Shown here: piece by piece, positions 1 to 58,231 of the stretch
Layout of the letters: the number at the start of each line of letters is the position of its first letter
Numbering within the stretch: the stretch's first letter is position 1
DNA from: Lachnospiraceae bacterium
GTDB lineage: Bacteria; Bacillota; Clostridia; Lachnospirales; Lachnospiraceae
Direction of reading: 5' to 3'
Assembly (NCBI GenBank): GCA_045590655.1
Contig: JAZNRI010000070.1
Coordinates: 101,100 to 165,099 of the forward strand
Length of the DNA stretch: 64,000 nt
Position numbers and translations under genes: made by a program
Notes under the pieces: generated by a model
Told to the model about the DNA's origin: nothing
The model's input: only the letters and a program-made list of their open reading frames with translations
Databases searched by the model: none

Positions 1-92
1 TGCCTGAAATTATTCATAAACTTGATGCAATGCCCATGAACGCAAACGGCAAGATTGACAGGGTATTGTTGAAGGAGAAGTATGGTAAGTAA
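1..92 (+). CDS. C-terminal fragment of an AMP-binding/adenylation enzyme (DltA/NRPS A-domain-like), 5' truncated by window edge
   Basis: My translation from nt 3 is PEIIHKLDAMPMNANGKIDRVLLKEKYGK*. NGKIDR matches the A10 core motif (NGKxDR) of ANL adenylating enzymes. Stop at 90-92 overlaps the next ATG at 82. Confidence 0.8.
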   Translation, partial: PEIIHKLDAMPMNANGKIDRVLLKEKYGK

Positions 93-951
93 GTATAGGT
101 ATTCTAAGGTATTTATCATTGGCTCGGGGCAATTGGCATACGATTGTGCTGAAATAGTAAAAAAATATCTATCTAATGTTAAAGTATTTGAATTAAAAGT
201 GACGGAAAGCACCGTTTTAGAAAAATTATGTGATAAGAACGCAATATCTTATCAAAGTGTAACGTCAAAGGGTTTGACGGAAACTTTGTTGGAGGAAGAT
301 GAAGATACTTTGATTATTAGCGCGGCCAGTATCTACCTTGTGCCAAAGCCAGTGATTGAAAAAAAGAATTATTTGATTATTAATTGGCATAACGCATTAT
401 TGCCTGCACATAAGGGACGGAATGCGGAAGTTTGGGCAATATATTGCGGCGACAAGGTGACAGGTGTAACCTGGCATGTGATCACGGAAGATATAGATGC
501 AGGGGAAATTATCTGTCAAAGAGAAATACAAATAAGTGATAAAACTACGGCAATGTCATTGTATCGGGAGCAGGTTTTGTTAGGAAAAGCATTGTTTACT
601 GAATTCTGCGAGGATTTGCTTAAGGGCCGATGCAAAACGGTAAAACAGAAAGAAAGTGTGGCATCGCAAATGCATTTTTCCAAAGATATACCGAATAACG
701 GTATGATAGACTGGGATTGGGATATATCGGGAATTTCACGATTTTTGCGGGCTATGGATTATGGCAGTCTCCTCTTGATGGGAAAGATGAGAGTGAAGTA
801 TGGTGATATACAATATGATTTTTACCGATACAGCATTAAACAAGCGGAAGAGTATGTTGAAGCAAGAGTTATTACCTTTGAAGAGGGAAAACTTATTATA
901 AAAGAGGAAAATAAAATAATAACATTAAAAGGATTACAGGAGATAGAGTAA
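82..951 (+). CDS. N-formyltransferase (Fmt/sugar-formyltransferase fold)
   Basis: INWHNALLPAHKG (N-x-H, HxxLLP), GVTWH..EDIDAG with the catalytic Asp, and C-terminal GMIDWDW..I.RFLRA. Confidence 0.85.
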   Translation: MVSKYRYSKVFIIGSGQLAYDCAEIVKKYLSNVKVFELKVTESTVLEKLCDKNAISYQSVTSKGLTETLLEEDEDTLIISAASIYLVPKPVIEKKNYLIINWHNALLPAHKGRNAEVWAIYCGDKVTGVTWHVITEDIDAGEIICQREIQISDKTTAMSLYREQVLLGKALFTEFCEDLLKGRCKTVKQKESVASQMHFSKDIPNNGMIDWDWDISGISRFLRAMDYGSLLLMGKMRVKYGDIQYDFYRYSIKQAEEYVEARVITFEEGKLIIKEENKIITLKGLQEIE

Positions 952-1169
952 TGGACATTTTAGCAATATTAAAAGATTTAAAAGATGATGTGGATTTTGA
1001 AAGTGCAAATGACTTTGTAGAAGAAGGGTTGCTTGATTCTTTTGACATCGTGAATTTGGTCGGAGCATTGGAAGATGAGCTTGACATTGAAATCAGCGGA
1101 AGAGATATTGTGCCTGATAATTTCGTTTCTGTTGAAGCAATTGAGAATATGTTAGAAAAGTATAGGTAA
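951..1169 (+). CDS. Acyl/aminoacyl carrier protein (DltC-like)
   Basis: 72 aa, acidic, GLLDSFDIV phosphopantetheine Ser motif, PDNFVSV C-terminus. TAATG stop/start overlap with the formyltransferase. Confidence 0.85.
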   Translation: MDILAILKDLKDDVDFESANDFVEEGLLDSFDIVNLVGALEDELDIEISGRDIVPDNFVSVEAIENMLEKYR

Positions 1170-1173
1170 AAAT

Positions 1174-1962
1174 ATGAAGCAATATATCTCTTATCAAAAC
1201 ATTCTTGATAATTTGGATGAAATACGTAACGGCGACATTGTATATGTGGTTTCGGACATACTGGCTTTGTCCGTGCAAGCCCGTGAAAATGGAGAGCGGA
1301 TGAATCTTGACCATTTTATTGACAGTATTATTGGTAAAGCCGGTCCGGAGGGTACGGTCTTAATCCCTGTATTCAATTGGGACTTTTGTAAAGGAGTAAC
1401 CTTTGATATTCGAAAGACAGTATCCAGAACGGGAGCGCTGGGGAATGCCGCATTAAAAAGAGCGGATTTTAAAAGAAGTAAACATCCGCTGTATTCTTTT
1501 ATGATATGGGGAAAGGACCGGGACATGCTAACGGAAATGGATCCTAAAGATGCTTTTGGCGCGGATTCCGTATTCGGTTATTTGCATCGTAATAAGGCCA
1601 AGGCCTTGGTGATTGGTTTGCCTACATTATCAGGCCTTACATTTATTCATTACGTGGAGCAAATGGTAGGTGTTCCTTACCGATATTCAAAGGATTTTAC
1701 AGCCGGATATATTGATGAGGAGGGAAACGAAAGTCAAAAGACTTATTCGATGTATGTAAGAGATCTGGATATGGATCCAAGACATATCGATGGTTTTCGG
1801 CCTTTAGGTGACATTTTGGAGGATAGGGGTGTTTCGGTTACGTATCGTATGAATGATGTAGAGTTTCATATTGTAGATCTGGCTGAAATGTATGCTGTTA
1901 CAAAAGAGGATATTGTAAACAACGATTCGAAGAATATGTATCATTATAACCATTTGAGCTAG
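1174..1962 (+). CDS. AAC(3)/YokD-family N-acyltransferase
   Basis: GTVLIPVF, RSKHPLYSF..WG, FGADSVF, TFIHYVE and VPYRY match aminoglycoside 3-N-acetyltransferase family blocks. Confidence 0.8.
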   Translation: MKQYISYQNILDNLDEIRNGDIVYVVSDILALSVQARENGERMNLDHFIDSIIGKAGPEGTVLIPVFNWDFCKGVTFDIRKTVSRTGALGNAALKRADFKRSKHPLYSFMIWGKDRDMLTEMDPKDAFGADSVFGYLHRNKAKALVIGLPTLSGLTFIHYVEQMVGVPYRYSKDFTAGYIDEEGNESQKTYSMYVRDLDMDPRHIDGFRPLGDILEDRGVSVTYRMNDVEFHIVDLAEMYAVTKEDIVNNDSKNMYHYNHLS

Positions 1963-2122: not shown

Positions 2123-3541
2123 ATGAAACGAATGGAATCTGTAAAGCGTTTGGTTGTACTTCAGCTTACTTCGATAAGTTTGATTGTGCAAATTATAGCA
2201 TATGCTTTTATTTGGTATAAATTTTATAAAATAAATGTTGTGTCTGAATTTTATATCAAAGGTGACTTGCTTGTAATTGCCTTGTATACAATTTTACTTC
2301 TGTTTTTTTATTCCACATACGGGGGAACCAAAATCGGTTACTTAAAGCCGTTTGATGTATATTTGTCACAAACATTTTCAACTTTGATGGCAAATGCAAT
2401 TGCATACGCTATTTTGTCATTGATGAATTCCGGTTTGGTTGAACCAAAAGCCATATTGGTTATGACGGCCGCTCAATTGATTTTTAATTTGATATGGGTA
2501 TTTGTTAGTGATGCTTTTTATAAAATGGTATTTCCTCCCAGAGAGTTGTTGCTTGTACACGGAGAACGTTCCATTGAGGATATTTTATTTAAATTCAGCA
2601 CCCGAAAAGATCGCTATGTGATTTCCAAATGCATGAATATCAGTGAAGGACATAAAGCAATCCAGGACGAAGTCTTGGAACGTTATGCCGGAATTGTTTT
2701 GTGGGATATTCCTACTGCAGACCGTAATGAGTTGATGAAGTTTTGTTATAAGCACTCTATTCGAGTGTATATGATGCCCAAAATCCCTGATGTTATTGTT
2801 ATGGGATGTGAAAAGATGCATTTGTTTGATACGCCTATTTTCTTAACAAGAGAGTATGCATTGCGTATTGAACAGAGGTTTATTAAGCGCACCATTGACT
2901 TGGTTTGTGCAATTATTCTTGTGATTATTACATCTCCGATTATGTTGATTACGGCATTGATTATTAAGTTATCGGATGGTGGTCCTGTCTTTTATAAGCA
3001 GGTGCGTTGCACATTGAACGATAAGGAATTTCATATTATTAAATTTAGGAGTATGCGTGTGGATGCTGAGAAGGATGGCGTGGCAAGATTGGCCGCTAAA
3101 GGAGATCCGCGAATTACTCCTTTTGGTCGTTTTATAAGAACTGTAAGAATTGATGAACTTCCGCAACTTTTTAATATTATTAAGGGCGATATGTCTTTTA
3201 TAGGACCGAGGCCGGAGCGCCCGGAAATCATTGCGCAGTATATGGAAGACATGCCGGAATTTGCCTTTAGAACTAAAGTAAAAGCAGGGCTTGCCGGATA
3301 TGCGCAGGTGTACGGAAAATATAATACGACCCCCTATGATAAGCTTAAATTGGATTTAACATACATTGAAAATTATTCAGTTTGGTTAGATATAAAGCTG
3401 ATGCTGTTGACGTTAAAAGTATTGATTACGCCGGATAGTACAGAGGGCGTAGACAAAGAACAAAAAACAGCATTAAAGAACAGTGCATCCGGTAATGAAG
3501 ATGTAAAACAAGATGTAAGTGATACGGAAGCAGTAGAATAG
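2123..3541 (+). CDS. Priming polyprenyl-phosphate hexose-1-phosphate transferase (WcaJ/CpsE family)
   Basis: N-terminal TM helices; KRTIDL, FYKQVR, KFRSM, RIDELPQLFNI.KGDMSFIGPRPERP. Confidence 0.92.
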   Translation: MKRMESVKRLVVLQLTSISLIVQIIAYAFIWYKFYKINVVSEFYIKGDLLVIALYTILLLFFYSTYGGTKIGYLKPFDVYLSQTFSTLMANAIAYAILSLMNSGLVEPKAILVMTAAQLIFNLIWVFVSDAFYKMVFPPRELLLVHGERSIEDILFKFSTRKDRYVISKCMNISEGHKAIQDEVLERYAGIVLWDIPTADRNELMKFCYKHSIRVYMMPKIPDVIVMGCEKMHLFDTPIFLTREYALRIEQRFIKRTIDLVCAIILVIITSPIMLITALIIKLSDGGPVFYKQVRCTLNDKEFHIIKFRSMRVDAEKDGVARLAAKGDPRITPFGRFIRTVRIDELPQLFNIIKGDMSFIGPRPERPEIIAQYMEDMPEFAFRTKVKAGLAGYAQVYGKYNTTPYDKLKLDLTYIENYSVWLDIKLMLLTLKVLITPDSTEGVDKEQKTALKNSASGNEDVKQDVSDTEAVE

Positions 3542-10082: not shown

Positions 10083-10097
10083 AATAACAGGTGTAAA

Positions 10098-11059: not shown

Positions 11060-12052
11060 ATGAGCGAGTTGATATCGGTAGTAGTGCCTATTTATAATGT
11101 TGAAAAATATTTGACACGATGTTTGGAAGCCTTATTAAAACAAACATATACAAATTTAGAGATTATTCTTGTAGATGACGGTTCTAATGACGGTAGTTCT
11201 GCAATTTGCGATGAGTATGCCGAAAAAGACTCACGTATAAAAGTAATCCATAAAGAGAATGGTGGGTCCAGTTCTGCCAGAAATGCGGGAATTGAAGCAG
11301 CAACGGGTAAATATATTGGATTTTGCGACAGCGATGATTATCCGGAGCCGGATTTATACGAAAATCTTTATAAAATATTTTTAACTTATGAAGATGTTTA
11401 TATGGCACAATCCATGTCAAGTGATTATCTTGAAGACGGAACTATGGTAAAAGGCCCATACAAGGACAGCGGAGAGGTTAATTTTATTTCGCGGGAAGAG
11501 ATGTTTCGTATGTTGATGTTGCACGTGGGAGACAGCTCTTTTTGCACAAAACTCATTCGTGCTGATTATATGAAGCAATTTCGTTTCCCGGTCGGCCGTC
11601 TGAATGAAGATTTGGAATTGCTTTTGCGTATGAATAACGGTATTCCGGGTGTGTATTCCTGGGAACGAAACGGATACAATATCGAATTGCGGGACGGAAG
11701 TAATTCAAGAAATGTTTTTAGACAGTCTTTTTATGATGCAGTATTGGTAAACAGCAACAAAGCCTTTGAAATTATGGAGGAGCAATATCCGCAATATAGG
11801 GAGGAAACAGAACGTTTCTGTTACTTCCAACGTTTGGATTTTCTTTTACACATTCCCGTAGCGGAAATGAACAAAGAAAATGAAACTTATCAGAGGACAA
11901 TAACGGAGATTAAAAAGTCACGTAAGAAGATTAAAAAGAATCAATACCTTACAAAGAAGGAAAAGCGTAATTTGTTGATTCTGAGTTATGTTCCGAAACT
12001 TAGTAAACGATGCCATGGAATTATTATGAAATTAAAAAAGGGCAGAAGTTAA
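11060..12052 (+). CDS. Glycosyltransferase family 2
   Basis: SVVVPIYNVEKYL, LVDDGSND, NGGSSSARNAG, FCDSDD, NED. Confidence 0.92.
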   Translation: MSELISVVVPIYNVEKYLTRCLEALLKQTYTNLEIILVDDGSNDGSSAICDEYAEKDSRIKVIHKENGGSSSARNAGIEAATGKYIGFCDSDDYPEPDLYENLYKIFLTYEDVYMAQSMSSDYLEDGTMVKGPYKDSGEVNFISREEMFRMLMLHVGDSSFCTKLIRADYMKQFRFPVGRLNEDLELLLRMNNGIPGVYSWERNGYNIELRDGSNSRNVFRQSFYDAVLVNSNKAFEIMEEQYPQYREETERFCYFQRLDFLLHIPVAEMNKENETYQRTITEIKKSRKKIKKNQYLTKKEKRNLLILSYVPKLSKRCHGIIMKLKKGRS

Positions 12053-12084
12053 AATTTTACTTAAAAAGGAATGCTGATATCGAA

Positions 12085-13155
12085 ATGAAAGAACGTATTT
12101 ATATATGCCATACCTATTATCATGTATATATAACCATATTGAAAGAATTGGCAATGTCCAAAGCAGATTATGGTAAGGCAACTTTGATTTTGAGTAAAAT
12201 GTCCAATGATTTCGGTGAATTAAAGTCCAGAGCTGAAGCGGTAGGATTGTTTGAAGAAATTTTGGAGTTAGATGAGAAGAAAGATACTTTTTTTCCGGAG
12301 TTGGAAAAGTATAAAAAAGATAAGGGAAATATCTTGTTTAATATGATTTCCCGTATTCAGTATACCAAGAAGTTCGCAAAACTTCAGGAAAAGTATATTC
12401 ATATTCCGTTCAAAGAATATAAGCAGATTTATGTATATTGTGATGCCGATCCCATTGGATTGTATTTGAATCAAAAACGAATTCGTTATCATGCATTGGA
12501 AGACGGTTTGAATTCTTTGGTGTATATTGATCATGCGCGTTTTGCGAATCAGGGGGCATTCGGCTTGAAGGCTTTTATGTCAAAACAATTGAATTTGATT
12601 TTTGTCCAAAACGGATACGGAAAATATTGTATTGATATGGAAGTAAATGATATTGAATCCATTAAGTACCCATGTAAGTATTATATTGAACAAAGCCGAC
12701 AGGAACTGACAGAACGTTTAACATATGAAGATAAAGAATTACTGTTAAAGGTTTTTGTAAAGGATATAGATGAATTACAAAGTAAGATTGAGGAGTGTAA
12801 AGCGGGAAAGGGCTCTGTGTTGATTTTAACTGATCCCTTGTGTTCTTTGGATGTGAGAGAGCAGATTTTTAGGGATATCATAGATATGTATGAAGCAGAT
12901 TATCGTGTCTTTATCAAACCGCATCCGAGAGATGAACTGGATTATGCATCAGTATTTGCGGAATATGCGCAGTTTGACCCGGCTATGCCTATGGAGATTT
13001 TGAATTTGTTTGAAGATTTTCAATTTGATAAGGCGGTGGGAGTGCTTACGGAAATGAAAGCGGTAAAATTCGCAAAGGAAGCAATTCGGTTGGGACCTGA
13101 TTTTATGGATAAATATGAAGAGCCTGAAATCCACAGGCAGAATGAAAGGATATAA
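12085..13155 (+). CDS. Sialyltransferase-like GT-B enzyme (probable nonulosonate transferase)
   Basis: HALEDG (D/E-D/E-G) and IKPHPRD (HP) motifs of bacterial CMP-nonulosonate transferases. ATG 12085 preferred over the ORF-track start 12010. Confidence 0.65.
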   Translation: MKERIYICHTYYHVYITILKELAMSKADYGKATLILSKMSNDFGELKSRAEAVGLFEEILELDEKKDTFFPELEKYKKDKGNILFNMISRIQYTKKFAKLQEKYIHIPFKEYKQIYVYCDADPIGLYLNQKRIRYHALEDGLNSLVYIDHARFANQGAFGLKAFMSKQLNLIFVQNGYGKYCIDMEVNDIESIKYPCKYYIEQSRQELTERLTYEDKELLLKVFVKDIDELQSKIEECKAGKGSVLILTDPLCSLDVREQIFRDIIDMYEADYRVFIKPHPRDELDYASVFAEYAQFDPAMPMEILNLFEDFQFDKAVGVLTEMKAVKFAKEAIRLGPDFMDKYEEPEIHRQNERI

Positions 13156-16938: not shown

Positions 16939-17631
16939 ATGAATGCTGTAGCTATTATTACCGCCAGAGGCGGAAGTAAAAGAATACCCCGTAAAAATGT
17001 TAAGGAATTTCTTGGTAAACCGATTCTTTTATATTCTATCGAGGCAGCATTAAACAGTGGTATGTTTGAAGAAGTTATGGTGTCTACCGAGGATGAAGAA
17101 ATTGCAGAATTGGCCAGAAAGGCAGGGGCTGTGGTTCCGTTTATGCGAGGCAGTGAAAATGCCAATGACTTTGCCACTACCACGGATGTTTTGCTGGAGG
17201 TAGTAGAAGAATATGAGAAGCGGGGAAAGCACTTTGAGTATGGTTGTTGTATTTATCCTACGGCGCCGTTTGTAACGGCGGAAAAGTTAAGGGAAGGTAT
17301 GGAAAGGTTAGCGGCTTCCGATGCGGATACATTAATGCCTGTAGTGCCGTTTTCTTTTCCGCCGCAACGAGGAATGGTGATTAGGGAAGAAAAATTGCAA
17401 TTTATACAGCCTGAGCATGCTCTGACCCGTTCTCAGGATTTGGAGCACTGGTATCATGATGTGGGACAGTTTTACTGTTTTCGTACGGAGAATTTTAAAA
17501 GAAATAAAATCCTGACAGTAGGAAATGTATTGCCTTTGGTGGTGTCGGAACTGGAAGTGCAGGATATTGATACAATTTCGGATTGGAAAATTGCTGAAAT
17601 GAAGTATGAGGCAATGGTGGAGAAGAAGTAA
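16939..17631 (+). CDS. pseF: Pseudaminic acid cytidylyltransferase (CMP-Pse synthetase)
   Basis: TARGGSKRIPRKN, VSTEDEEIA, RSQDL..YHDVGQFY, QDIDT; pseC, pseI and pseG are also in the window. Confidence 0.8.
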   Translation: MNAVAIITARGGSKRIPRKNVKEFLGKPILLYSIEAALNSGMFEEVMVSTEDEEIAELARKAGAVVPFMRGSENANDFATTTDVLLEVVEEYEKRGKHFEYGCCIYPTAPFVTAEKLREGMERLAASDADTLMPVVPFSFPPQRGMVIREEKLQFIQPEHALTRSQDLEHWYHDVGQFYCFRTENFKRNKILTVGNVLPLVVSELEVQDIDTISDWKIAEMKYEAMVEKK

Positions 17632-24208: not shown

Positions 24209-25954
24209 ATGAAAAAGTATATGCAAAAGCATTGGTTTGAATATGTATATTCAGCATTGTTAACATGCATTGCCGCAGTAGGCATCTCCCTAATGTTTGG
24301 CTATATTCTGGAGACAAACGATGACGCGTTTTTGCGCAGTATTGTAAGCGGTAACTATACGGGTGAACCGGAAGCTCATCTGATTTATATTATGTATCCG
24401 CTGGGTTTTATTTTAAAAAGCTTATATTCGATACTTCCAAAAGTATACTGGTATGATTTTTATATGATCGGGATGCACTATATATGTATCTTTATGTTAT
24501 TGGTAAGAGTCGGAGAACAGTTTCAGATCAGAAGCAATAAGTTTCTTGGAATTACAGCATCTTTTATTGGTTTGATGTTACTGGATTTGCCCTATATTGT
24601 CATGCATCAATACACTGTATTGGCGGGGGTAATGATGTCTGTGGCAGTTTTTTGGATGGCAACCGCTAAAGAGACCGGCAACGGGAAATATTGGTACGAC
24701 AGAGTTGTTATAATTGTATTTTCGATACTTTGTTTGTGGACGCGAAAGCAGGTGTTTTTGCTTGCAGTCCCTCTGTTAGCACTCATTACTATTGTAAGGA
24801 TAATTAAAATCAGAAAAGATAAAAAAGCTATCAAAAATAAATTGCTATTTGGAGCGATCTTTTCAATTGTTGTATTAGGTTCTTTTGTGACAGATAAGGT
24901 TGCATATAGTGATTCTGAATGGAAGGATTTTCTTGTGTATAATGAAGCAAGAACGGATCTCTATGACTTCTATGGTGTGCCGTCTTTTGACTATTATCAG
25001 GATAGGTATGAGAAACTGGGACTGGATTATGGCGATTGGATTGTAATGCAAAATTATAATACAAAGCTGGCGTCGGATTTGTCGTTAGATAATGTTGTGG
25101 AATTGGCAGATTTGTCAGAGCAAAAGTGGGTAGAAGGATTTCAATACACCAATATGCTCCATAAAATGATCTACATTGTTGTAAACAATATGTATACAAA
25201 TCCGGTACAACCCATCGGTTTGTTATTAACGGTTTTGTATGTGCTTGCCTTGATTAATTGCTATAAAAAAGACAAGAGAATCAGCTTTTTATCAGTTTGC
25301 GCAATGTTGCTTTTTGAAGCGGCAGTTGTGGGATATTTTGTATGGCAAGGAAGATTTTTAGAGAGAATATCATATGGTTTTTATTTAATGCAAACAGTTT
25401 ATCTGTTTGGGATTCTTCTATATGATATTAAAGAAGTAAAAATTTTCACAAAGAAAAATGTCTTCTGGTGTGTTGTTGGTAGTGCATTAGTTGTACTGTT
25501 TTGTGGTACTGTGGGATTGCAACGTGTGCGTACAACATTAGATAATCAGGCATATATCGAGCAGAACTGTTCGGCATGGGAAACGTTAAATCAGTATTTC
25601 AGAGAATACAATGAAGTGAGCTATTGCATTGATACTACTTCGTTTGCATATTTTACGGATTGGATGTTTTGTGATGAGATGACTGAGACGAATAATGTGA
25701 TTCGCTTGGGTACATGGACAATGTATAGTCCTTTGGATAAGAAACACGATGGGGAGAATGATTTGCTTTCGTTGCTTGAAAGCGGACAGTGTTATTACGT
25801 GCAGGATACACGTAAAGGACAGGACTGGATACATAGCTTTTGGGAAAGTAAGGGCTATGATATTGAAATAGAAGTGGTTGATACAATTACAATACACAAT
25901 GGTTGTGTATTTGAAATTATTGATATGTCAAATATAAAAAAGGTGAAAAAGTGA
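24209..25954 (+). CDS. Polytopic membrane protein, GT-C-like
   Basis: TM1 followed by ETNDD acidic motif; two TM clusters around an extracellular loop. Confidence 0.45.
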   Translation: MKKYMQKHWFEYVYSALLTCIAAVGISLMFGYILETNDDAFLRSIVSGNYTGEPEAHLIYIMYPLGFILKSLYSILPKVYWYDFYMIGMHYICIFMLLVRVGEQFQIRSNKFLGITASFIGLMLLDLPYIVMHQYTVLAGVMMSVAVFWMATAKETGNGKYWYDRVVIIVFSILCLWTRKQVFLLAVPLLALITIVRIIKIRKDKKAIKNKLLFGAIFSIVVLGSFVTDKVAYSDSEWKDFLVYNEARTDLYDFYGVPSFDYYQDRYEKLGLDYGDWIVMQNYNTKLASDLSLDNVVELADLSEQKWVEGFQYTNMLHKMIYIVVNNMYTNPVQPIGLLLTVLYVLALINCYKKDKRISFLSVCAMLLFEAAVVGYFVWQGRFLERISYGFYLMQTVYLFGILLYDIKEVKIFTKKNVFWCVVGSALVVLFCGTVGLQRVRTTLDNQAYIEQNCSAWETLNQYFREYNEVSYCIDTTSFAYFTDWMFCDEMTETNNVIRLGTWTMYSPLDKKHDGENDLLSLLESGQCYYVQDTRKGQDWIHSFWESKGYDIEIEVVDTITIHNGCVFEIIDMSNIKKVKK

Positions 25955-26490
25955 AAAAGGTTATTGAAAACGACAAACTGTATCTTCGGAAGATGGAGTA
26001 TTCAGACACGGATTATATTGTAAAGTGGAGAAATTCGGATTTTGTCAGAACGCATTTTATCTATCAGGAATTGTTTACAAAAGAGTCTCATGAAAACTGG
26101 ATTCGCACTATGATAGAAACCGGTAAAGCAGATCAGTTGATTATCTGCATTAAAGGCGAAAACGGACAAATTGATATTCCGGTTGGAAGCGTCTATATCA
26201 GAGATATTGACAATACGCATAATAAGGCCGAGTACGGGATATTTATCGGAGAAGAGAGCGCACGAGGAAAAGGTATCGGAAGCCAGACAGCAGCGCTTAT
26301 GATAAAATACTGTTTTGAACAGTTGAAATTACATCGCTTGTTTTTACGTGTTTTTGCAGACAACAAACAGGCAATTCGAAGTTATGAAAAAGCCGGCTTT
26401 GTACAGGAAGCATATTTAAAAGATGATGTCAGGATTCAAGGACAGTATAAGGATATTGTTTTAATGGGAATATTAAACCCGGAGGATTAA
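25951..26490 (+). CDS. GNAT (RimL/PseH-like) N-acetyltransferase
   Basis: VKWRNS..VR, AEYGIFIGE..RGKGIG, N.QAIRSYEKAGF.QE; GTG start. Confidence 0.85.
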   Translation: MKKVIENDKLYLRKMEYSDTDYIVKWRNSDFVRTHFIYQELFTKESHENWIRTMIETGKADQLIICIKGENGQIDIPVGSVYIRDIDNTHNKAEYGIFIGEESARGKGIGSQTAALMIKYCFEQLKLHRLFLRVFADNKQAIRSYEKAGFVQEAYLKDDVRIQGQYKDIVLMGILNPED

Positions 26491-29572: not shown

Positions 29573-30998
29573 AGTAAAGAAGTGGTTTCGTTTAAGCATT
29601 ATGGCCATTTGTACCGGTATTGGAATGGTACAGTTGATTTATGCTATAATTTGGGCTTTTCAAAACGGAAATAATGTACAGGATTTTTTCGACAGTTCAA
29701 TATATTTAAGCGGAGCATTAAAAATGAAAAGTGACGGATGGCGCTTGTTGGGATATTCGTGCTTTTTGTTTCCCTTTAGAATGTTAGAGGGTGTTTTAAA
29801 AGAAAACTATGTAATACCGGTATATTGCGTGCAGGCAGTGATTAGTTTGTTATGTTATGCTAAGGGATGTAAAACCATTGCAGAAGTGTTACTGAAAAAA
29901 AGTGTATCTTTTAAGTGTATGCTGATTCCGGCAGGGTATATTTTAACACTTCCCATTGTTTGGCAGATGCAGTTTGCTGTTTTGCCGGATGCACTATGTG
30001 TAGCGTTGGTTGTTCTTTTGTTTTCACTGATTACGGAGTGGGTATTTAAGAATGATGGTTTGAATTGGAAAAAGGCAGTGTCAGTGGTGGCAGTTTTGCT
30101 GGTATTGGGACTGGTGGAGCGACATTACTTTTATGCAGCGTTGTGTATGAGTTTCTTCGGTATGCTATTATGTGCAATTCGCTTTTTTATAAAAAAATAT
30201 CGTACAAAAAAGATGATTCCGATAATAGTGTTGTTATTGGTGTGTCTCATTGTTACACCTATTGTGACAACGGCAATTAATTCGGCTGTACCTAAGCGTG
30301 GAACATACGTATCCTATTCTCTTGCAACCGATTTGTGGAAGCGTTTTGTATACCCTAATCTTGAAGAAAATTATCCTCATTATACGGAGAGAATAGTATC
30401 GATTATTCCTTTTTATGTGGCGGAAACCTGTGATGGGCATTATGAGTACTATATGAATAGTATAGGGCCTATGCTTGAAAATTTTAATCCGGAAGAAGCA
30501 GAATCCATTTCGTTTGAGTTGGCCAGAATCGGTTATGCTTTACACAAAAAGGATATGTATCGAAGTGCTGTAAAAGAAGGAATTATGTATATATTTATGC
30601 CGTTTTCCATGGAAAAATATATGTATAGTAACGGAGATTCGCTGTACGGACATAATATTGTCAAAATGTATGAAAAAAGTCCGAAGCTTACGAATGATTA
30701 TATGCATGTGGCAATGAACGGATTTGCGGTTGTATCTGCGTTGGGAATTATAATGTATATTGCAGAAGCACTTTGTAGAAAAACATTTACCAAAAGATAT
30801 ATCGGAACGCTGTTTTACTGTTTGATGCATATTGGGTGTGTAACGGCTCCTGTTATGTTATTTGCAATCAGTAAGTTTGATTACAGAATTGGATTGTTTT
30901 CTGTATTTATGTGGGGAGCGGTTTCATTAATTAGCATCGTGATCGATGACAAAAACAAAGTAGAAGAGTTAACAGAAGGCGGTAACTGTGAAAAGTAA
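29547..30998 (+). CDS. Polytopic membrane protein, GT-C-like
   Basis: TM1 then QDFFDSSIY; LPDAL; FDYR. True start may be a downstream ATG. Confidence 0.4.
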   Translation: MRMAKMNNKVKKWFRLSIMAICTGIGMVQLIYAIIWAFQNGNNVQDFFDSSIYLSGALKMKSDGWRLLGYSCFLFPFRMLEGVLKENYVIPVYCVQAVISLLCYAKGCKTIAEVLLKKSVSFKCMLIPAGYILTLPIVWQMQFAVLPDALCVALVVLLFSLITEWVFKNDGLNWKKAVSVVAVLLVLGLVERHYFYAALCMSFFGMLLCAIRFFIKKYRTKKMIPIIVLLLVCLIVTPIVTTAINSAVPKRGTYVSYSLATDLWKRFVYPNLEENYPHYTERIVSIIPFYVAETCDGHYEYYMNSIGPMLENFNPEEAESISFELARIGYALHKKDMYRSAVKEGIMYIFMPFSMEKYMYSNGDSLYGHNIVKMYEKSPKLTNDYMHVAMNGFAVVSALGIIMYIAEALCRKTFTKRYIGTLFYCLMHIGCVTAPVMLFAISKFDYRIGLFSVFMWGAVSLISIVIDDKNKVEELTEGGNCEK

Positions 30999-32859
30999 AA
31001 GAACAATTTCGGGAAAAAAGTGGACTAGAATAGGTGCTATTTTTGTGTTGGATATTGTTTCCATTATTGTAGTGTCTTTTCTGTCAATTATTATTCGTTT
31101 TGATTTTTATATAAATGATGTACCGAGCAAGTATTATAATAATATCGGCAAGGTGTTACTTTTTAATATTATTGTAACCCTGCTGATTTATTGGCTGTGG
31201 AGATTATATAAAAGTGTATGGCGTTATGCAAGCGCAACGGAACTGATCAATATAGGTGGTGCAGTTTTTACAACTTTTGTGGTGCAAGTAGTTGGGTATA
31301 ATGTTTTTTCGGTGGATTTACCGAGATCTTATCCACTTTTCTATGCTTTCTTTCTTTTTGTTTCTTTGGTAGGAATTCGATTCAGCTATCGTATTCTTCG
31401 AATTGTCAAAGAGAAACAAAGAGGAATCGGTGCCGATGGTGAACGAAAACGTTGTATGATTATAGGTGCCGGTGCGGCAGGAAATGCTATGATTAAGGAG
31501 ATTGAGTCAACGGCGTATTTGAGTATGAAGGTATGCTGTGTAATTGATGATAATCCGGGATGCTGGGAAAAGAGACTCAGAGGTGTGCCCATTGTGGGCG
31601 GAAGAGAAAGCATTCTAAAGGCCGTAGAGAAATACAATATTGACGAGATTATCATTGCGATTCCGTCTGCAAAACCTTCGCAATTAAAGGGAATTATTGA
31701 AATTTGCAAGGAGACTGGTTGTAAAATACGTACATTGCCGGCAATTTATCAGTTGATTAACGGAGAAGTCAATGTTTCGAAGTTAAGAGAAATTGAAATT
31801 GAAGATTTGTTGGGAAGAGAACCCGTAAATGTTAATTTAGATGAAATTATGGATTACGTCAGCGGAAAAAGAATTATGGTTACCGGAGGCGGCGGTTCCA
31901 TTGGGAGCGAGTTGGCAAGGCAGATTGCTTCTCATAATCCGGAATGTCTTATTATTGTAGATATATATGAAAATAATGCTTATGATATTCAACAGGAGTT
32001 AAAGGAGAAATATCCAAATCTTAATTTGCAGGTGTTGATTGCATCTGTGCGCAATACAGCCCGCATGAATTCAATTTTCGAAAAATATCGTCCTCAATTG
32101 GTTTATCATGCAGCGGCGCATAAGCATGTTCCTTTGATGGAAGACAGCCCGAATGAAGCAATTAAGAATAATGTTTTCGGCACATATAAAATTGCTGTGG
32201 CAGCGGACAAGTACGGTGTTGAAAAATTTGTTATGATATCAACGGATAAGGCAGTAAATCCGACAAATATTATGGGAGCATCCAAACGTATTTGTGAAAT
32301 GATTGTTCAGTCGATGAACCGGAAGTCAAAGACCGAGTTTGTGGCTGTAAGATTCGGAAATGTTTTGGGAAGTAACGGAAGTGTTATTCCGTTATTCAAG
32401 AAACAAATTGCCAATGGCGGACCGGTAACCGTTACCCATCCTGATATTATCCGCTATTTTATGACAATACCGGAAGCGGTTTCTCTTGTTTTGCAAGCCG
32501 GTGCATATGCAAAAGGCGGAGAGATTTTTGTGCTTGATATGGGTGAGCCGGTTAAAATTTTGGACTTGGCCAAAAACTTAATTCAATTGTCAGGTTACAA
32601 AGTAGGAGAAGATATTGAGATTGTGTTTACCGGATTAAGACCGGGAGAAAAGATGTATGAAGAACTCCTTATGAATGAGGAGGGGCTACAGGAAACTGAG
32701 AATAAGATGATTCATATCGGAAAACCTATTGTTTTTGATGAAGCAGAATTTGAACAAACATTGATTCGTTTAAAAAAAGCAGCAGAAGCAGAAGCGGAAG
32801 ATATCAGGGATATTGTAATGGAACTGGTATCTACATACCATCCGAATGATGAAAGATAA
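30988..32859 (+). CDS. Membrane-bound UDP-GlcNAc 4,6-dehydratase (CapD/PglF/EpsC family)
   Basis: Four N-terminal TMs; IGAGAAG; VTGGGGSIGSE; HAAAHKHVP; STDKAV.P.NIMGASK; RFGNVLGS. Confidence 0.93.
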   Translation: MKSKRTISGKKWTRIGAIFVLDIVSIIVVSFLSIIIRFDFYINDVPSKYYNNIGKVLLFNIIVTLLIYWLWRLYKSVWRYASATELINIGGAVFTTFVVQVVGYNVFSVDLPRSYPLFYAFFLFVSLVGIRFSYRILRIVKEKQRGIGADGERKRCMIIGAGAAGNAMIKEIESTAYLSMKVCCVIDDNPGCWEKRLRGVPIVGGRESILKAVEKYNIDEIIIAIPSAKPSQLKGIIEICKETGCKIRTLPAIYQLINGEVNVSKLREIEIEDLLGREPVNVNLDEIMDYVSGKRIMVTGGGGSIGSELARQIASHNPECLIIVDIYENNAYDIQQELKEKYPNLNLQVLIASVRNTARMNSIFEKYRPQLVYHAAAHKHVPLMEDSPNEAIKNNVFGTYKIAVAADKYGVEKFVMISTDKAVNPTNIMGASKRICEMIVQSMNRKSKTEFVAVRFGNVLGSNGSVIPLFKKQIANGGPVTVTHPDIIRYFMTIPEAVSLVLQAGAYAKGGEIFVLDMGEPVKILDLAKNLIQLSGYKVGEDIEIVFTGLRPGEKMYEELLMNEEGLQETENKMIHIGKPIVFDEAEFEQTLIRLKKAAEAEAEDIRDIVMELVSTYHPNDER

Positions 32860-32873
32860 AGGAAGTATCAGAT

Positions 32874-34004
32874 ATGACAAAGCAGAGAATTTATTTATCA
32901 TCCCCCACTATGCATACGGAAGAATTAAAATATATACAAGAGGCTTTTGATACTAATTGGGTGGCACCGTTGGGAAAGAACGTCGACGAATTTGAAGCAG
33001 AAATGGCATCTTATACAAAGTGCGGATTTGCAGCTGCGCTGTCGGCGGGAACAGCAGCAATACATTTGGCGTTAAAGCTGGCCGGTGTTAAGCAGGGAGA
33101 TTATGTATTTTGTTCGGATTTGACGTTTGCTGCTACCTGTAATCCGATTTGTTACGAAAAAGCAGTTCCTGTATTTATTGATGCGGAGCCGGATACATGG
33201 AATATGTCACCCCAGGCATTGGAGCGGGCATTTGCAAAATATCCGGAAACCAAAGTAGTGTTGGTGGCTAATTTGTATGGTACACCTGCGAAGTTGGATG
33301 AGATTCGTAGAATATGTGAGAAAAATGGCGCAATATTGATTGAAGATGCCGCCGAATCTTTGGGAGCAACTTACAAGGGGAAACAAACCGGAACATTTGG
33401 TGAGTTCGGTATTTATTCTTTTAACGGAAATAAAATAATAACAACCTCCGGCGGCGGAATGCTTGTATCTCAGGATGAAGAAATGATAAAAAAAGCAAGA
33501 TTTTATGCAACGCAAGCCAGAGAACCGAAACGCCATTATGAGCATAAAGAAGTTGGATACAATTATCGTATGTCAAATGTTGTTGCAGGTATAGGCCGTG
33601 GCCAGCTGTTACATTTGGATGAGCATATCGCACTAAAAAAACATATTTATGAGACTTATAAAGAGGCGTTTGCAAACATCAATTGTGTTCGTATGAATCC
33701 GATAGGGGATTGTGAGTCGCAACCAAATTATTGGTTATCATGTTTGTACATTGAAGAGGGAAAGCGTTGTAATCCTTTGGATATTATGTTGGCACTGGAG
33801 AAAGAAAATATAGAATCCAGACCGATATGGAAGCCGATGCATATGCAGCCGGTTTTTAAAGAATGTGATTTCTTTGCACATGAAGAAGGCTGTATATCGG
33901 TTGGAGAAGACGTGTTTAAAAAAGGTGTTTGTCTGCCTAGCGATATTAAAATGACCGCGGAAGAACAAAATCGTGTTATAGAAATTATAAAAAGCGTACT
34001 GTAG
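32874..34004 (+). CDS. DegT-family sugar aminotransferase (EpsN/PglE-like)
   Basis: NWVAPLG, SFNGNKIITTSGGG (PLP Lys), GYNYRMSN, ESRPIWKPMH. Confidence 0.9.
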   Translation: MTKQRIYLSSPTMHTEELKYIQEAFDTNWVAPLGKNVDEFEAEMASYTKCGFAAALSAGTAAIHLALKLAGVKQGDYVFCSDLTFAATCNPICYEKAVPVFIDAEPDTWNMSPQALERAFAKYPETKVVLVANLYGTPAKLDEIRRICEKNGAILIEDAAESLGATYKGKQTGTFGEFGIYSFNGNKIITTSGGGMLVSQDEEMIKKARFYATQAREPKRHYEHKEVGYNYRMSNVVAGIGRGQLLHLDEHIALKKHIYETYKEAFANINCVRMNPIGDCESQPNYWLSCLYIEEGKRCNPLDIMLALEKENIESRPIWKPMHMQPVFKECDFFAHEEGCISVGEDVFKKGVCLPSDIKMTAEEQNRVIEIIKSVL

Positions 34005-35656: not shown

Positions 35657-35660
35657 GCGT

Positions 35661-41477: not shown

Positions 41478-41497
41478 AAACAGATGTTGTTTCGGAG

Positions 41498-42457: not shown

Positions 42458-42471
42458 AAACGGAGGATTTT

Positions 42472-48162: not shown

Positions 48163-49356
48163 TTATTTTTTATAATAAGCAATTAATTTCTTTACTGCGG
48201 TAATTACGGATTCTACGTCTTCATCTGTCATGGAATAGAAGAGGGGAATGCTTAAAATACGTTCGTAAAGAGCCTCTGCCTTAGGACATAAACCTTTATG
48301 ATAACCTAGTTTTTCGTAATGAGAGTGATAGTAAACCGGGATATAGTGGACCTGGGGACAAACATTTTCGGCAACAAGCGCATTGAAAAATTCGCGTCTG
48401 GTACAGTTGAGTTTCGCCAAATCCAATTGTAAAATATATAAGTGTCTCGTTGTGTCTGATTCGGAAATTTCTTTCTGGATGATGATTTCCGGTGTGTCAG
48501 CAAACGCTTCATTATAGCGAGCTACAATTTCTTTGCGTCGTTTGGAAAAGGCCGGTAACTTGTCTAACTGGCTTGCAACTAAGGCACATTGGAAATCAGT
48601 CATACGATAATTGTATCCTAATTCCACCTGCTCATAATACCAGGGATCATCGCAGGGATTGTTCATTTCGTCCATATTACGTGTGATGCCGTGAGCGCGG
48701 AGACGTAATAACTTGCGGTATAAGTTTTCGTCATTGGTAGTGACTGCACCACCTTCACCGGAGGTGATGGTTTTAACCGGATGAAAACTGAAAGTAGTCA
48801 TATCTGCTATACTTCCTACTCCTTGTCCGTTGTACTTGGTGCCGATTGAATGAGCAGCATCTTCGATTAGGGTTAAGTTGTATTCTTTGCAGATAACGCG
48901 GATTTCATCCAATTCTACTGCTTGTCCCGTAAAATCTACAGCGACTACTGCTTTGGTTGCCGGAGTAATGCATGTCCGGATGGAAGCAGGAGAAATATTA
49001 TAGGTTTCGGGATTGATGTCGGCAAAAACAGGTTTTGCACCGCAATACAATGCGCAATTTGCTGATGCAGCAAATGTAATAGGTGTTGTAATGATTTCGT
49101 CACCGGGACCCAAATCAATGGCCATACAAGCGATGTGAAGCGCGGCGGTTCCGTTACTGACGGCAACAGCATATTTGGCGCCGGTTGTTTCACATAATTT
49201 GGCTTCGAATTCACTTACTTTTGGCCCACAAGTTACGTAACCGCTTCTTAATACTTCGGCAACGGCCTGAATATCGGTTTCATCAATGTATTGTCTGCCG
49301 TAAGATATTTTGGTGTCTCTGACGGGGGTTCCGCCAAGAATTGCCGGTTTGTTCAT
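48163..49356 (-). CDS. pseC: UDP-4-amino-4,6-dideoxy-N-acetyl-beta-L-altrosamine transaminase
   Basis: YGRQYI...DI.AV..VL, SFHPVKTITSGEGG, LGYNYRMTD, QVHYIP. ATG 49356 has a GGAG RBS. Confidence 0.85.
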   Translation of the reverse strand: MNKPAILGGTPVRDTKISYGRQYIDETDIQAVAEVLRSGYVTCGPKVSEFEAKLCETTGAKYAVAVSNGTAALHIACMAIDLGPGDEIITTPITFAASANCALYCGAKPVFADINPETYNISPASIRTCITPATKAVVAVDFTGQAVELDEIRVICKEYNLTLIEDAAHSIGTKYNGQGVGSIADMTTFSFHPVKTITSGEGGAVTTNDENLYRKLLRLRAHGITRNMDEMNNPCDDPWYYEQVELGYNYRMTDFQCALVASQLDKLPAFSKRRKEIVARYNEAFADTPEIIIQKEISESDTTRHLYILQLDLAKLNCTRREFFNALVAENVCPQVHYIPVYYHSHYEKLGYHKGLCPKAEALYERILSIPLFYSMTDEDVESVITAVKKLIAYYKK

Positions 49357-49460
49357 AAAACTCCGTTCTGAAGCGAATTTAATTTGTTGAATGATTTGGT
49401 TGAATGTTTGGATGCGATAATCTGTGTCGCTTCTGCACAAGAGTATCTTTCAACTTCTTA

Positions 49461-50590: not shown

Positions 50591-50624
50591 AAACAGTAGT
50601 GGATAAGTGTTGTGGAGGCTTTGG

Positions 50625-52262: not shown

Positions 52263-53307
52263 AGCGGACGGAAACAATCAAATAGGGATTGGGCATGTTA
52301 TGCGGTGCCTGACAATAGCTGACGCGTTGAAAAAAATCGGGGAGGATGTAATGTTCTTTACGGCGGACCATGGGTGTGAAGAAATGATTTCCGACCGGGG
52401 CTTTCGATGTCATGTGCTTGAAACTGCGTTTGATGATATGGAATCGGAGTTAGCATTGCTACAGACTGCGATGACTGAGTGGGGAGTTGACCGGTTACTG
52501 ATAGATTCATATTATGTAACGGAAGACTATTTGAAGGATTTGCGGGAGCAGGCTGTCACGGTCTATCTGGATGATGTGGACAGCTTTCCGTATCCGGTGG
52601 ATTTGCTGGTGAATTACAATGTATTTGCCGAGGCTTTAGATTATCCATACGGTATTGAATATGAAGAAAACGGAAAGAACGGTAGTATTGTAAAAGAAGA
52701 TATCACACTTGTGCTTGCAGGGCCGAAGTATGCACCGGTGCGTAAAGAATTTGCTGCTTGCCGGACCAAAATAAACGATGCTGTTTCGGAGATACTGATT
52801 ACATTGGGCGGAAGTGATGCATATAATCTGTCATATAAGATAAGTAAGGCACTTTTAAAAGCTACGGATGCCCGTTTAAACGTTGTGTGCGGACCTTTTA
52901 ACCTGCATAAGCAGGCTTTGCATGAGTTGGCCGCAAATGAGCCGAGAGTGATGGTTTATGAAAATGTGAAAGATATGTGGAATCTAATGCGGAAATGTGA
53001 TTTGGCAGTCTCTGCTGCCGGCTCTACTATGTGTGAACTGGCTGTGGCAGGTGTGCCTGCGATAACATTTTCCTTTGTGGAGAATCAAAAAAGGATTGCA
53101 GAGGCTTTCGGTAAGGAAAAGGCAGCGGTTACAATCGGACATTATGAGCCGAAAACAGAAGAACTTTTTTTGCGAGTGATAGCGGATGAATCGGAGATGC
53201 TTATATCTGATAAGGAAAAACGTGAGGCTCTTGTACAAAGAGCTTGCGAAATGGTGGATGGTCAAGGCGCCATACGTATTGCACGGGCGATTGTGGGATA
53301 TAAATAA
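52249..53307 (+). CDS. pseG: UDP-2,4-diacetamido-2,4,6-trideoxy-beta-L-altropyranose hydrolase
   Basis: IRADG..IGIGHVMRC, IDSY, YLDD, GPKYA.VR.EF, TLGGSD, SAAGST..E, ENQ, VDGQGA.RI. Confidence 0.88.
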   Translation: MTGIRADGNNQIGIGHVMRCLTIADALKKIGEDVMFFTADHGCEEMISDRGFRCHVLETAFDDMESELALLQTAMTEWGVDRLLIDSYYVTEDYLKDLREQAVTVYLDDVDSFPYPVDLLVNYNVFAEALDYPYGIEYEENGKNGSIVKEDITLVLAGPKYAPVRKEFAACRTKINDAVSEILITLGGSDAYNLSYKISKALLKATDARLNVVCGPFNLHKQALHELAANEPRVMVYENVKDMWNLMRKCDLAVSAAGSTMCELAVAGVPAITFSFVENQKRIAEAFGKEKAAVTIGHYEPKTEELFLRVIADESEMLISDKEKREALVQRACEMVDGQGAIRIARAIVGYK

Positions 53308-55356: not shown

Positions 55357-55415
55357 AATTATAAATGGGGACGGTGAACGCCGTTCCCATTCAGTGCGTA
55401 TAAAAGGAGACAAAA

Positions 55416-56285: not shown

Positions 56286-56310
56286 AAGTTGTGAAGGCAG
56301 AGGTGCAACG

Positions 56311-57528: not shown

Positions 57529-57645
57529 GCAAAAGTCATAATTGTAAGAAGTGTATGTTAAGGTGTATGTATGGATACTGCTGATTATCTAAGAACGAAT
57601 TAGCAGATTATAAAAGATTGAAATGACAGAAAAGAGGAAGTAATA

Positions 57646-58197: not shown

Positions 58198-58231
58198 GAC
58201 AAGAGAGATCTTTGAGAGAAAGGAAACGGAT

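Follow-up and report, generated by a model that had tools for sequence, protein, structure and literature searches.

The first four genes of the 64,000-nucleotide stretch of Lachnospiraceae DNA analysed here (contig JAZNRI010000070.1, positions 101,100 to 165,099; the window) encode the end of a stand-alone adenylating enzyme (A), a formyltransferase (F), a small carrier protein (PP, or T) and a relative of the aminoglycoside acetyltransferases AAC(3) (the AAC3-like protein). We lean, if only modestly, towards the view that they act together as a cassette for carrier-protein-dependent N-acylation of a cell-surface sugar, in which an N-formyl-aminoacyl group would replace the N-acetyl group of pseudaminic acid (Pse). 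Which N-acyl groups an amino sugar carries, pseudaminic and legionaminic acids included, defines serotypes, phage receptors and immune recognition. For acyl groups beyond acetyl and formyl, the installing enzymes are, to our knowledge, largely unknown.

The proposed route has four steps. In the first, which is well supported, the 504-aa A would adenylate an alpha-amino acid and load it onto the 72-aa carrier. The second and third steps are read from gene context. F would formylate the alpha-amine of the aminoacyl group while this is still thioester-bound on the carrier, as the trans equivalent of the F domain of the linear gramicidin synthetase LgrA, and the AAC3-like protein, which has the Antibiotic_NAT fold, would then take the acyl group from the phosphopantetheine arm, rather than from acetyl-CoA, and form an amide with a sugar amine. 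This transfer may rely on Cys72 along with His159 and Glu162. In the fourth and least certain step, the acceptor would be a nitrogen of Pse or of its nucleotide precursor, freed by a DUF4910 protein encoded just upstream of A, and the modified CMP-sugar would be built into polysaccharide by the GT52-like and other transferases encoded downstream.

Architecture of the cassette

The genes of the cassette are closely packed. Frame 3..92 (+) holds the last 29 codons and the stop of A, encoding PEIIHKLDAMPMNANGKIDRVLLKEKYGK with an NGKIDR motif of the A10 type. It overlaps by 11 nt the two-domain, 289-aa F, which opens at the ATG at 82 (82..951, +). The F stop shares one base with the ATG of the acidic, 72-aa carrier (TAATG, a 1-nt overlap; 951..1169, +), and a 4-nt gap (1169 to 1174) leads to the 262-aa AAC3-like gene (1174..1962, +). 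All of these junctions, re-read in the DNA, are as the original prediction for this stretch described them. It had also noted an intact N-x-H/D triad in the formyltransferase, and N101-W-H103 and D139 are present. Likewise, the usual LVHSS block of the AAC(3)-fold protein does read YVVSD, with TFIHYVE kept. A scan of the locus for promoters and terminators gave matches no more frequent than in shuffled controls. The locus sequence was found in gut and faecal DNA metagenomes only, no RNA runs containing it, and its relatives come from Lachnospiraceae metagenome-assembled genomes.

The upstream part of the locus was read from a related contig (L003) whose AAC3-like protein (P0002) is 98% identical to that of the window, with three further neighbourhood contigs (L001, L002 and L004; AAC3-like identity 84-71%). 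The gene order in this region is GtrII-like, DUF4910/DUF2172/HTH_47 (427 aa), A (504 aa), a middle gene, PP, AAC3-like and a priming transferase, the last also following the cassette in L001, L002 and L005-L007. The middle gene is F in L003 and a 195-aa GNAT in L001 and L002. Retrieving the upstream genes had been put forward as a check with the original prediction, and in relatives they prove to be a DUF4910 protein and then a 504-aa A, ahead of F. The L003 A gene is full length, and its last 29 residues are identical to those in the window.

The adenylating enzyme and the carrier

Judged by its sequence, A is a genuine amino-acid adenylation enzyme. The L003 protein belongs to the nonribosomal peptide synthetase (NRPS) type within the ANL superfamily and retains the core motifs, including FDAS and YGPSE. 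Among proteins of the Protein Data Bank (PDB), it matches LgrA at 1e-127 over the whole chain (the best domain being the A domain of module 2, 232.8 bits), PheA at 5e-67 and DltA at 1e-58. The specificity code that the original prediction had wished to see can be read, as DAPYMCYYAK with Asp235 and Lys517 kept, but it matches no code known to us. Five of its ten positions agree with a provisional, hand-derived DltA code. An MFCGEV segment of A is presumably DltA-like as well. The pocket is lined by Pro, Tyr, Met, Cys, Tyr and Tyr. A small residue is our guess for the substrate, with Ala or Gly as the guessed candidates. At least six other A codes occur in other lineages, and Asp235 and Lys517 are kept in all of them, which indicates alpha-amino acids. 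Asp235 is the residue that binds the free alpha-amine, and its retention implies that formylation comes after activation.

The 72-aa partner belongs to the phosphopantetheine carriers. It matches PP-binding at 1.7e-5 (25.4 bits against a cut-off of 20.8), carries an LLDSF serine motif within EEGLLDSF and has a pI of 4.05. The original prediction had called it DltC-like, and its best PDB matches are indeed the aminoacyl carrier protein 4h2s and DltC. Against the NCBIfam DltC model NF003464 it scores 30.8 bits, below the cut-off of 68, and does not rank as a DltC itself.

A Dlt system was considered for the window and rejected: the carrier falls below the DltC cut-off, a Pfam scan of 56 window proteins revealed no MBOAT, and no DltD is found among the annotated window genes.

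An exchangeable capping slot

In a scan of one genome per species, the AAC3-like protein had 268 relatives. Neighbours were classified in the 80 loci kept, from mechanical open reading frame (ORF) calls, and counts by slot refer to the 63 AAC3-anchored loci with at least 4 kb of upstream flank. An NRPS-type A gene is present in 37 of the 63. A carrier gene directly adjoins the AAC3-like gene, on either side, in 31 of these 37 and in none of the 26 loci that lack A. The original prediction had singled out synteny of A, F, carrier and AAC(3)-like genes with glycan loci as worth seeking. Synteny is conserved for A, a capping gene, PP and the AAC3-like gene, and the capping gene between A and PP is exchangeable: of the 37 loci, 13 hold F, 5 a RimJ/RimL-like GNAT and 19 neither.

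In one of these 19 loci (L038, 9053-9976), a single ORF between A and the AAC3-like gene encodes both a PP-binding carrier (residues 4-55) and a SAM methyltransferase (116-229). This fusion, observed once on a metagenome contig, represents a fourth kind of slot occupant.

The 195-aa GNAT of L001 and L002 has YdaF, RimJ and RimL as solved relatives, with no PseH structure among the matches. RimJ and RimL are N-terminal alpha-amine acetyltransferases, and all three types of capping enzyme belong to kinds known to modify alpha-amines. Loci with F, with the GNAT and without a cap are interspersed on the tree of AAC3-like proteins. Further, the ten-residue code DAP[Y/F]MCYYAK is common to all three (27 loci), and A is 94% identical between the F-type L003 and the GNAT-type L001. 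The shared code and this identity across slot types suggest that one and the same amino acid is presented with a formyl, acetyl or methyl cap, or with none. If so, swaps of the capping gene would explain how close strains can vary a surface epitope between formyl-aminoacyl, acetyl-aminoacyl and free aminoacyl forms.

The probable site of formylation

F is a member of the formyltransferase family PF00551 (Formyl_trans_N at 4e-20, 72.7 bits against a cut-off of 26.1; Formyl_trans_C matches weakly), and N101, H103 and D139 are invariant in 24 family members. Its AlphaFold2 model (predicted local distance difference test score, pLDDT, 94.2) is equally like Fmt and the sugar N-formyltransferases, with template modelling (TM) scores of 0.72-0.78. 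Sequence and predicted fold do not discriminate between a sugar-amine and an aminoacyl substrate, as WbkC, Fmt, ArnA, the LgrA F domain (4e-14) and PseJ (structure 6ci2, 5e-11) all lie within a few orders of magnitude in E-value.

The F family is discrete, with 95 homologs that are all stand-alone proteins of about 285-290 aa. We examined 87 F-anchored metagenome loci, of which 62 had enough flank to score A and 76 to score PP. A lies directly upstream of F in 42 of the 62 and anywhere in the locus in 51, and a carrier gene lies directly downstream in 51 of the 76 and anywhere in 63. The partner downstream of the F cassette is an MBOAT in 18 loci, a FabH-like KASIII in 15 and an AAC3-like protein in 7. 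The MBOAT loci carry DltD-sized proteins, and some are plain Dlt-like operons beside relA, hisS and aspS that have no sugar-amine genes. MBOAT systems move the acyl group out of the cytoplasm; consequently, a step that depends on formyl-tetrahydrofolate (formyl-THF) must come earlier, on the carrier. This placement, and the position of F between the A and carrier genes, make it most likely that F acts on the carrier-bound aminoacyl group, as the trans counterpart of the LgrA F domain working on an aminoacyl-S-carrier. It is not an F domain of the LgrA type in the strict sense, a covalent part of an F-A-PCP module, being a separate 289-aa protein. A trans-acting counterpart of that very rare NRPS domain would, if this is right, be common in gut bacteria.

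On one metagenome contig (L155, 5477-7855), a 793-aa ORF joins A to F through a short linker (…RGKIDRVFLKKKYAGRDAGDEGYLYRE…), which is either a true fusion or an assembly indel.

Capping could also follow transfer, with the AAC3-like protein first moving a free aminoacyl group from the carrier onto the sugar amine, after which the alpha-amine would be capped on the nucleotide sugar by F or, in sister loci, by the GNAT. In that case F would behave as sugar N-formyltransferases ordinarily do. The ambivalent sequence and fold of F are consistent with this order of events, the F gene is positioned after AAC3 in two loci (L134 and L136), and an optional cap, absent from 19 of the 37 A-containing loci, would suit late tailoring. 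We nevertheless regard it as unlikely, since F also sits between A and PP in operons where an MBOAT is the sole off-loader and no sugar-amine genes are nearby (e.g. beside relA), and the A-F and carrier-methyltransferase fusions tie tailoring to the carrier stage.

The proposed off-loading transferase

The AAC3-like protein belongs to the Pfam family Antibiotic_NAT (PF02522; 2.3e-27, 96.5 bits against a cut-off of 25). Its AlphaFold2 model (pLDDT 97.4) retrieves only Antibiotic_NAT structures among the top 50 Foldseek matches (TM 0.75-0.79; YokD, BA2930, AAC-VIa and FrbF), and identity to the solved members of the family is only 16-21%. Both His159 and Glu162 of the TFIHYVE motif are invariant in 80 homologs, as is Cys72 in the motif FNW[DG]FC. 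The residue aligned to Cys72 is Ile in YokD and BA2930, and the FrbF alignment has no Cys there. A Paenibacillus homolog of only 28% identity keeps it and directly precedes A-F-PP in a locus without sugar genes. Cys72 is possibly an acyl-enzyme nucleophile.

Membership of Antibiotic_NAT and retention of the His and Glu residues are also what an aminoglycoside resistance gene, lying by chance next to unrelated genes, would display. This is very improbable. The protein scores 36.9 bits against the AAC_3 equivalog model of NCBIfam, whose cut-off is 270, and 23-27 bits against subtype models with cut-offs of 420-560. The 4-nt gap to the carrier gene, the synteny with carrier, A and DUF4910 genes that is conserved across phyla, and fusions to DUF4910 and to a deacetylase (described below) all speak against it as well. 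We rejected resistance as the function on the grounds that the protein falls below every AAC(3) model and keeps this neighbourhood.

Three features of gene context make the AAC3-like protein the best candidate for the off-loading transferase: adjacency to the carrier gene, alternation with MBOAT as the partner of A-F-PP, and occurrence with A-F-PP where DUF4910 is absent. Other carrier-loading sets accompany the AAC3-like/DUF4910 pair in Bacillales loci that lack an NRPS-type A, namely ACP, SDR, AMP-ligase, LuxE and LuxC in Brevibacillus, and ACP, AMP-ligase, FkbH-like and a second ACP in Metabacillus. This points to carrier-borne acyl groups as the general donors for the subfamily.

We give a small chance to a different division of labour, in which the AAC3-like protein simply N-acetylates a sugar amine from acetyl-CoA, in place of PseH, and A-F-PP feeds another enzyme, such as the DUF4910 transacylase on which others have speculated (PMC4000134). 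In its favour, an NRPS-type A is absent from 26 of the 63 loci, and the Pse cluster of Schinkia (L048) contains an AAC3-like gene and no GNAT among the ORFs annotated there. All characterised members of Antibiotic_NAT, as far as we know, use acetyl-CoA. Further, a 'GT.L.PT' strand segment of the AAC3-like protein aligns with FrbF and BA2930, and this strand may line the pantetheine channel. Several observations run the other way. The carrier gene adjoins AAC3, not DUF4910, in 31 of the 37 loci, Paenibacillus loci read AAC3-A-F-PP with neither DUF4910 nor sugar genes, and AAC3 and MBOAT alternate beside A-F-PP. A separate GNAT (Acetyltransf_3/4, for which PseH membership is not implied) stands right before AAC3 in Brevibacillus (L057), and the window already holds a borderline PseH-like GNAT and a PseJ-like domain. 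The altered LVHSS block and the new invariant Cys also speak against this division.

A profile search for the subfamily collected 604 cluster representatives at E<=1e-30. If our proposal that these proteins off-load carrier-borne acyl groups is correct, it would supply a function for a large subfamily that is routinely annotated as aminoglycoside resistance, and that resistome surveys would over-call. One member, P0217, is a tandem Antibiotic_NAT protein.

The probable acceptor and a putative deacetylase

In L003, the DUF4910 gene (9.6e-103) lies two genes upstream of F. The corresponding gene lies upstream of the window, and the partner was consequently invisible to the original prediction. 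Across the 63 loci, DUF4910 occurs within 9 kb of the AAC3-like gene in 52. Natural fusions of AAC3-like and DUF4910/DUF2172/HTH_47 sequences occur in P0226 (682 aa) and P0239 (698 aa), with P0244 and P0277 added by length only. In P0300, the AAC3-like protein is fused instead to a WbmS-like polysaccharide deacetylase, and L091 and L136 each have a CE4 deacetylase next to A-F-PP. Such replacement of DUF4910 by non-homologous deacetylases suggests a two-step logic, in which an acetyl group is removed and another acyl group is installed.

In L091, a legionaminic-acid and Maf flagellin glycosylation locus, a 339-aa protein without a Pfam match (9217-10236) takes the place of the AAC3-like protein between A-F-PP and the CE4 deacetylase. 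It is a candidate non-homologous off-loading transferase.

More than 40 related loci have genes for PseB, PseC, PseG, NeuB (PseI) or a PseF-type CMP-synthetase, or GT52-like genes, beside the AAC3-like gene. In Schinkia (L048), the order is Maf-PseB-PseC-...-PseF-PseG-PseI-AAC3-DUF4910. A DUF4910/DUF2172/HTH_47 gene beside an Antibiotic_NAT-like gene in a Pse context is the arrangement of Cj1295 and Cj1296/7 in Campylobacter jejuni. Cj1295, of the same DUF4910/DUF2172 family, is required for Pse bearing a 5-N-(2,3-di-O-methylglyceroyl) group, and removal of the N5-acetyl group has been proposed for it (PMC3068675). Its phase-variable neighbour Cj1296/7, of 792 bp, is annotated as an aminoglycoside N3'-acetyltransferase (PMC3025981, PMC4965091). 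Similarly, the neighbourhoods given in the structure paper on CA_C2195 include NeuB, ACP and an 'aminosugar N-acetyltransferase', and transacylation or deacylation of an amino sugar was proposed there (PMC4000134). We therefore favour a Pse nitrogen as the acceptor, possibly N5 after de-N-acetylation, as the least certain step of the route. If this is right, it would give DUF4910 and Cj1295 a role, a question that has stood since 2010-2014.

The acyl group may have another target, either a 4-amino-6-deoxyhexose that the window's WecE-like or LegC-like transaminases would produce or, as in loci linked to KASIII, a small molecule that is not a glycan. Qui3N and Qui4N are known to carry N-(N-acetyl-alanyl) and N-(N-acetyl-glycyl) groups (PMC3210612), the window holds a high-scoring WecE-type transaminase and rml genes, and A-F-PP occurs with AAC3 in a Paenibacillus locus that has no sugar genes. 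Even so, we give this only a slim chance. In the genomes compared, the AAC3/DUF4910 pair goes with Pse-type genes rather than with WecE or rml, and the genes that come after the cassette in this lineage include the priming transferase, the GT52-like gene and PseF. C. jejuni genetics, moreover, tie the DUF4910 family to N5 acylation of Pse.

The core route of the original prediction, with an amino acid loaded, formylated and transferred by the AAC(3) enzyme to an amino sugar, gains comparative support from synteny, cap swaps, fusions and the presence of F in MBOAT and Dlt-like operons. Three parts of it need revision: the acceptor is better sought in a nonulosonic (pseudaminic) acid nitrogen than in a generic dTDP- or UDP-4-amino sugar, the DUF4910 partner had been missed, and A-F-PP is portable beyond glycans.

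A number of points weigh against the route that we favour. The A code DAPYMCYYAK fits no specificity code known to us. F is as near to sugar N-formyltransferases (WbkC at 1.5e-16; by fold FdtF, QdtF and WlaRD) as to Fmt or the LgrA F domain. The 26 AAC3-like loci without an NRPS-type A also lack an adjacent carrier gene, and in some of them no carrier gene was detected at all, which means that the subfamily need not always use a carrier. DUF4910 has a mono-zinc His/Asp/His site without the catalytic Asp and Glu of M28 (PMC4000134), which keeps its role as a deacetylase putative. Cj1296/7 is a putative member of the FNWxFC subfamily, likened to it by published annotation and gene length. Finally, the window holds other possible acceptors (a dTDP-4-amino-hexose and a bacillosamine-type sugar), and its Pse genes lie 46 kb from the cassette.

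A portable module

Context in related genomes indicates that the A-F-PP trio is a portable unit, used outside glycan loci too. Loci L087-L090 and about 18 metagenome loci (e.g. L106, L115, L142, L148 and L170) read (small ORF)-A-F-PP-MBOAT followed by DltD-sized proteins, with the A code DVKIMSLCNK. Such Dlt-like operons would place an N-formylated, charge-neutral aminoacyl ester on a teichoic-acid-type polymer. We know of no description of formylating Dlt-like operons.

In Paenibacillus thiaminolyticus (L085/L086) and in L108, the order is ACP-KASIII-SDR-SDR-KASIII-SDR-Antibiotic_NAT-A-F-PP-KASIII-MBL, with an A code of DIFFWALLDK and with neither sugar genes nor DUF4910. This looks like a small natural-product pathway built on the same A-F-PP module.

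We tentatively extend the proposal to a modular 'acyl-swap' for bacterial nonulosonic acids coupled to a portable N-formyl-aminoacyl donor cassette, which we consider possible rather than probable. A deacetylase (DUF4910, WbmS-like or CE4) would free a nitrogen, on which a Cys-bearing Antibiotic_NAT-fold enzyme would install a carrier-borne acyl group. The donors would include aminoacyl groups (from A and PP, optionally formylated, acetylated or methylated on the carrier), glyceryl groups (from FkbH and ACP) and hydroxyacyl groups. The donor cassette would also plug into Dlt-like MBOAT systems, yielding charge-neutral N-formyl-aminoacyl esters on teichoic-acid-type polymers of gut Firmicutes.

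Relation to known systems

The nearest parallel for the first two steps is the F-A-PCP module of LgrA, where an NRPS-type A loads a carrier and a folate-dependent formyltransferase with an N-x-H/D triad formylates the tethered aminoacyl group, as we propose here. LgrA is also the best solved relative of A. Unlike LgrA, the present system consists of three separate proteins in the order A, F, T, has no condensation domain, and would pass its product to a glycan through an Antibiotic_NAT-fold enzyme instead of into a peptide. Cis F domains have been reported in only three NRPSs (PMC8949500), a rarity that contrasts with the widespread stand-alone F family seen here.

D-alanylation of teichoic acids by DltA, DltC, DltB and DltD shares with the cassette a stand-alone A (504 aa here) and a small acidic carrier with EEGLLDSF, and sister loci of the F family that read A-F-PP-MBOAT are truly Dlt-like. 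The window differs in the inserted formyltransferase, in the proposed off-loading to an amine by a cytoplasmic Antibiotic_NAT-fold enzyme, in having no MBOAT or DltD among its annotated genes, and in the low score of its carrier against the DltC model.

Together, the AAC3-like and DUF4910 proteins correspond, by analogy, to the genetically implicated and biochemically unsolved pair Cj1295/Cj1296-7. There, too, the gene for a DUF4910/DUF2172 protein and one of about 264 codons that is 'aminoglycoside N3'-acetyltransferase'-like are neighbours, and pseB and pseC lie alongside. The acyl group in C. jejuni is a glyceric acid derivative rather than an aminoacyl group, and no A-F-PP module is present. 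AAC(3), FrbF and YokD share with the AAC3-like protein a fold (TM 0.75-0.79) and a catalytic His in T-x-x-H-x-x-E. What sets the AAC3-like protein apart is YVVSD in place of LVHSS, the invariant Cys72, a proposed acyl-S-carrier donor and a proposed sugar-nucleotide acceptor. PseH and PseJ likewise N-acylate an amine of a Pse precursor, and similar proteins occur in the window, as a PseH-like GNAT and a PseI-PseJ-like fusion. Those enzymes put acetyl or formyl straight onto the sugar from acetyl-CoA or formyl-THF, whereas here an aminoacyl group would come from a carrier, with the formyl on the amino acid.

In butirosin biosynthesis (BtrI/BtrJ/BtrH/BtrG), a carrier protein holds an amino-acyl group while this is assembled and N-protected, after which the group is moved to the amine of a sugar-derived acceptor. 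That pathway differs in its enzyme families, in the later removal of its protecting group and in its acceptor, an aminoglycoside antibiotic.

Our literature searches found no paper on a stand-alone F with stand-alone A and T, on Antibiotic_NAT with a carrier-bound donor, or on capping-gene swaps. Full-text searches combining AAC(3) or Antibiotic_NAT with carrier protein, adenylation or polysaccharide returned nothing, those on alanyl and legionaminic acid gave general reviews only, and no biochemical characterisation of the proposed route was found. Carrier-protein-dependent acylation of cell-surface glycans by a stand-alone A-F-T set and an Antibiotic_NAT-fold transferase would thus appear to be new.

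The surrounding glycan locus

Downstream of the cassette lies a very large glycan locus with a Wzz-like gene, an EpsG polymerase, many GT2 and GT4 glycosyltransferases, an ABC exporter, a cytidylyltransferase, an acyltransferase-3, a GDSL protein and a PglF-like protein. A priming polyprenyl-phosphate sugar transferase (2123..3541, +; Bac_transf 1.4e-64) opens the polysaccharide assembly genes after the cassette. The GT52 or polysialyltransferase-like glycosyltransferase (12010..13155, +; Glyco_transf_52 3.3e-12) is a candidate nonulosonic-acid transferase, and its homolog comes right after AAC3 in many related loci.

Several genes of Pse synthesis are present. PseF, the CMP-pseudaminic acid synthetase (16939..17631, +), scores 295.5 bits against TIGR03584 (cut-off 205.7). 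PseC (48163..49440, -; TIGR03588, 480 bits against 423.5) is the transaminase that makes the UDP-4-amino-4,6-dideoxy-L-AltNAc precursor, and PseG (52249..53307, +; TIGR03590, 195.6 against 153.6) is the UDP-sugar hydrolase. A PseH-like GNAT (25951..26490, +) is borderline, at 91.6 bits against the TIGR03585 cut-off of 93.1. PseI (50607..52262, +; TIGR03586, 460.5 against 340) is fused to a PseJ-like formyltransferase domain (Formyl_trans_N, residues 390-488) that keeps N-L-H and D, which suggests that the fusion makes 7-formamido Pse. No short PseB was found in the window, and its PglF-like 623-aa dehydratase scores 187 against a PseB cut-off of 407.75.

The original prediction had counted three amino-sugar transaminases as possible suppliers of acceptors, and three DegT-family genes are indeed found, at 23057-24184, 32874-34004 and 48163-49440 (-), the last being PseC. 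The first is a WecE-type dTDP-4-amino-4,6-dideoxyhexose transaminase (+; NF008687, 646.5 bits against 375). The second is LegC-like (DegT 1.9e-94; LegC family 372 bits against a cut-off of 420) and lies with a PglF/CapD-like 4,6-dehydratase (Polysacc_synt_2 6e-125) in 30988..34004 (+). Both represent alternative acceptor suppliers.

PseI-formyltransferase fusions of about 550 aa recur beside AAC3-like/DUF4910 genes (L010, L011, L018, L041-L045 and L050-L052). A DUF6077 protein (5.7e-89; 49553-50590) encoded between PseC and the PseI fusion recurs near the AAC3-like loci L034 and L039.

Six large polytopic membrane proteins with 7-10 hydrophobic segments each (21290-23044, 24209-25954, 27435-28661, 29547-30998, 34016-35656 and 35619-36959) have no Pfam match and no mutual similarity. 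Their genes are interleaved with transaminase and GNAT genes, and they are probably flippases, polymerases or ligase-like proteins.

Two more sugar pathways and a second export system lie within 40428-44804 and 54277-62703, which indicates that more than one surface polymer is encoded in the window. One pathway comprises GDP-mannose 4,6-dehydratase, an epimerase/reductase, ManC and ManA, and the other RmlB, RmlA and RmlC, with Wzm/Wzt (including the Wzt C-terminal domain) and a 691-aa methyltransferase protein. Two proteins with GH25 muramidase domains are also encoded among the glycan genes, at 44973-48071 (1032 aa, with Big_2 and choline-binding-type repeats) and 56263-57528.

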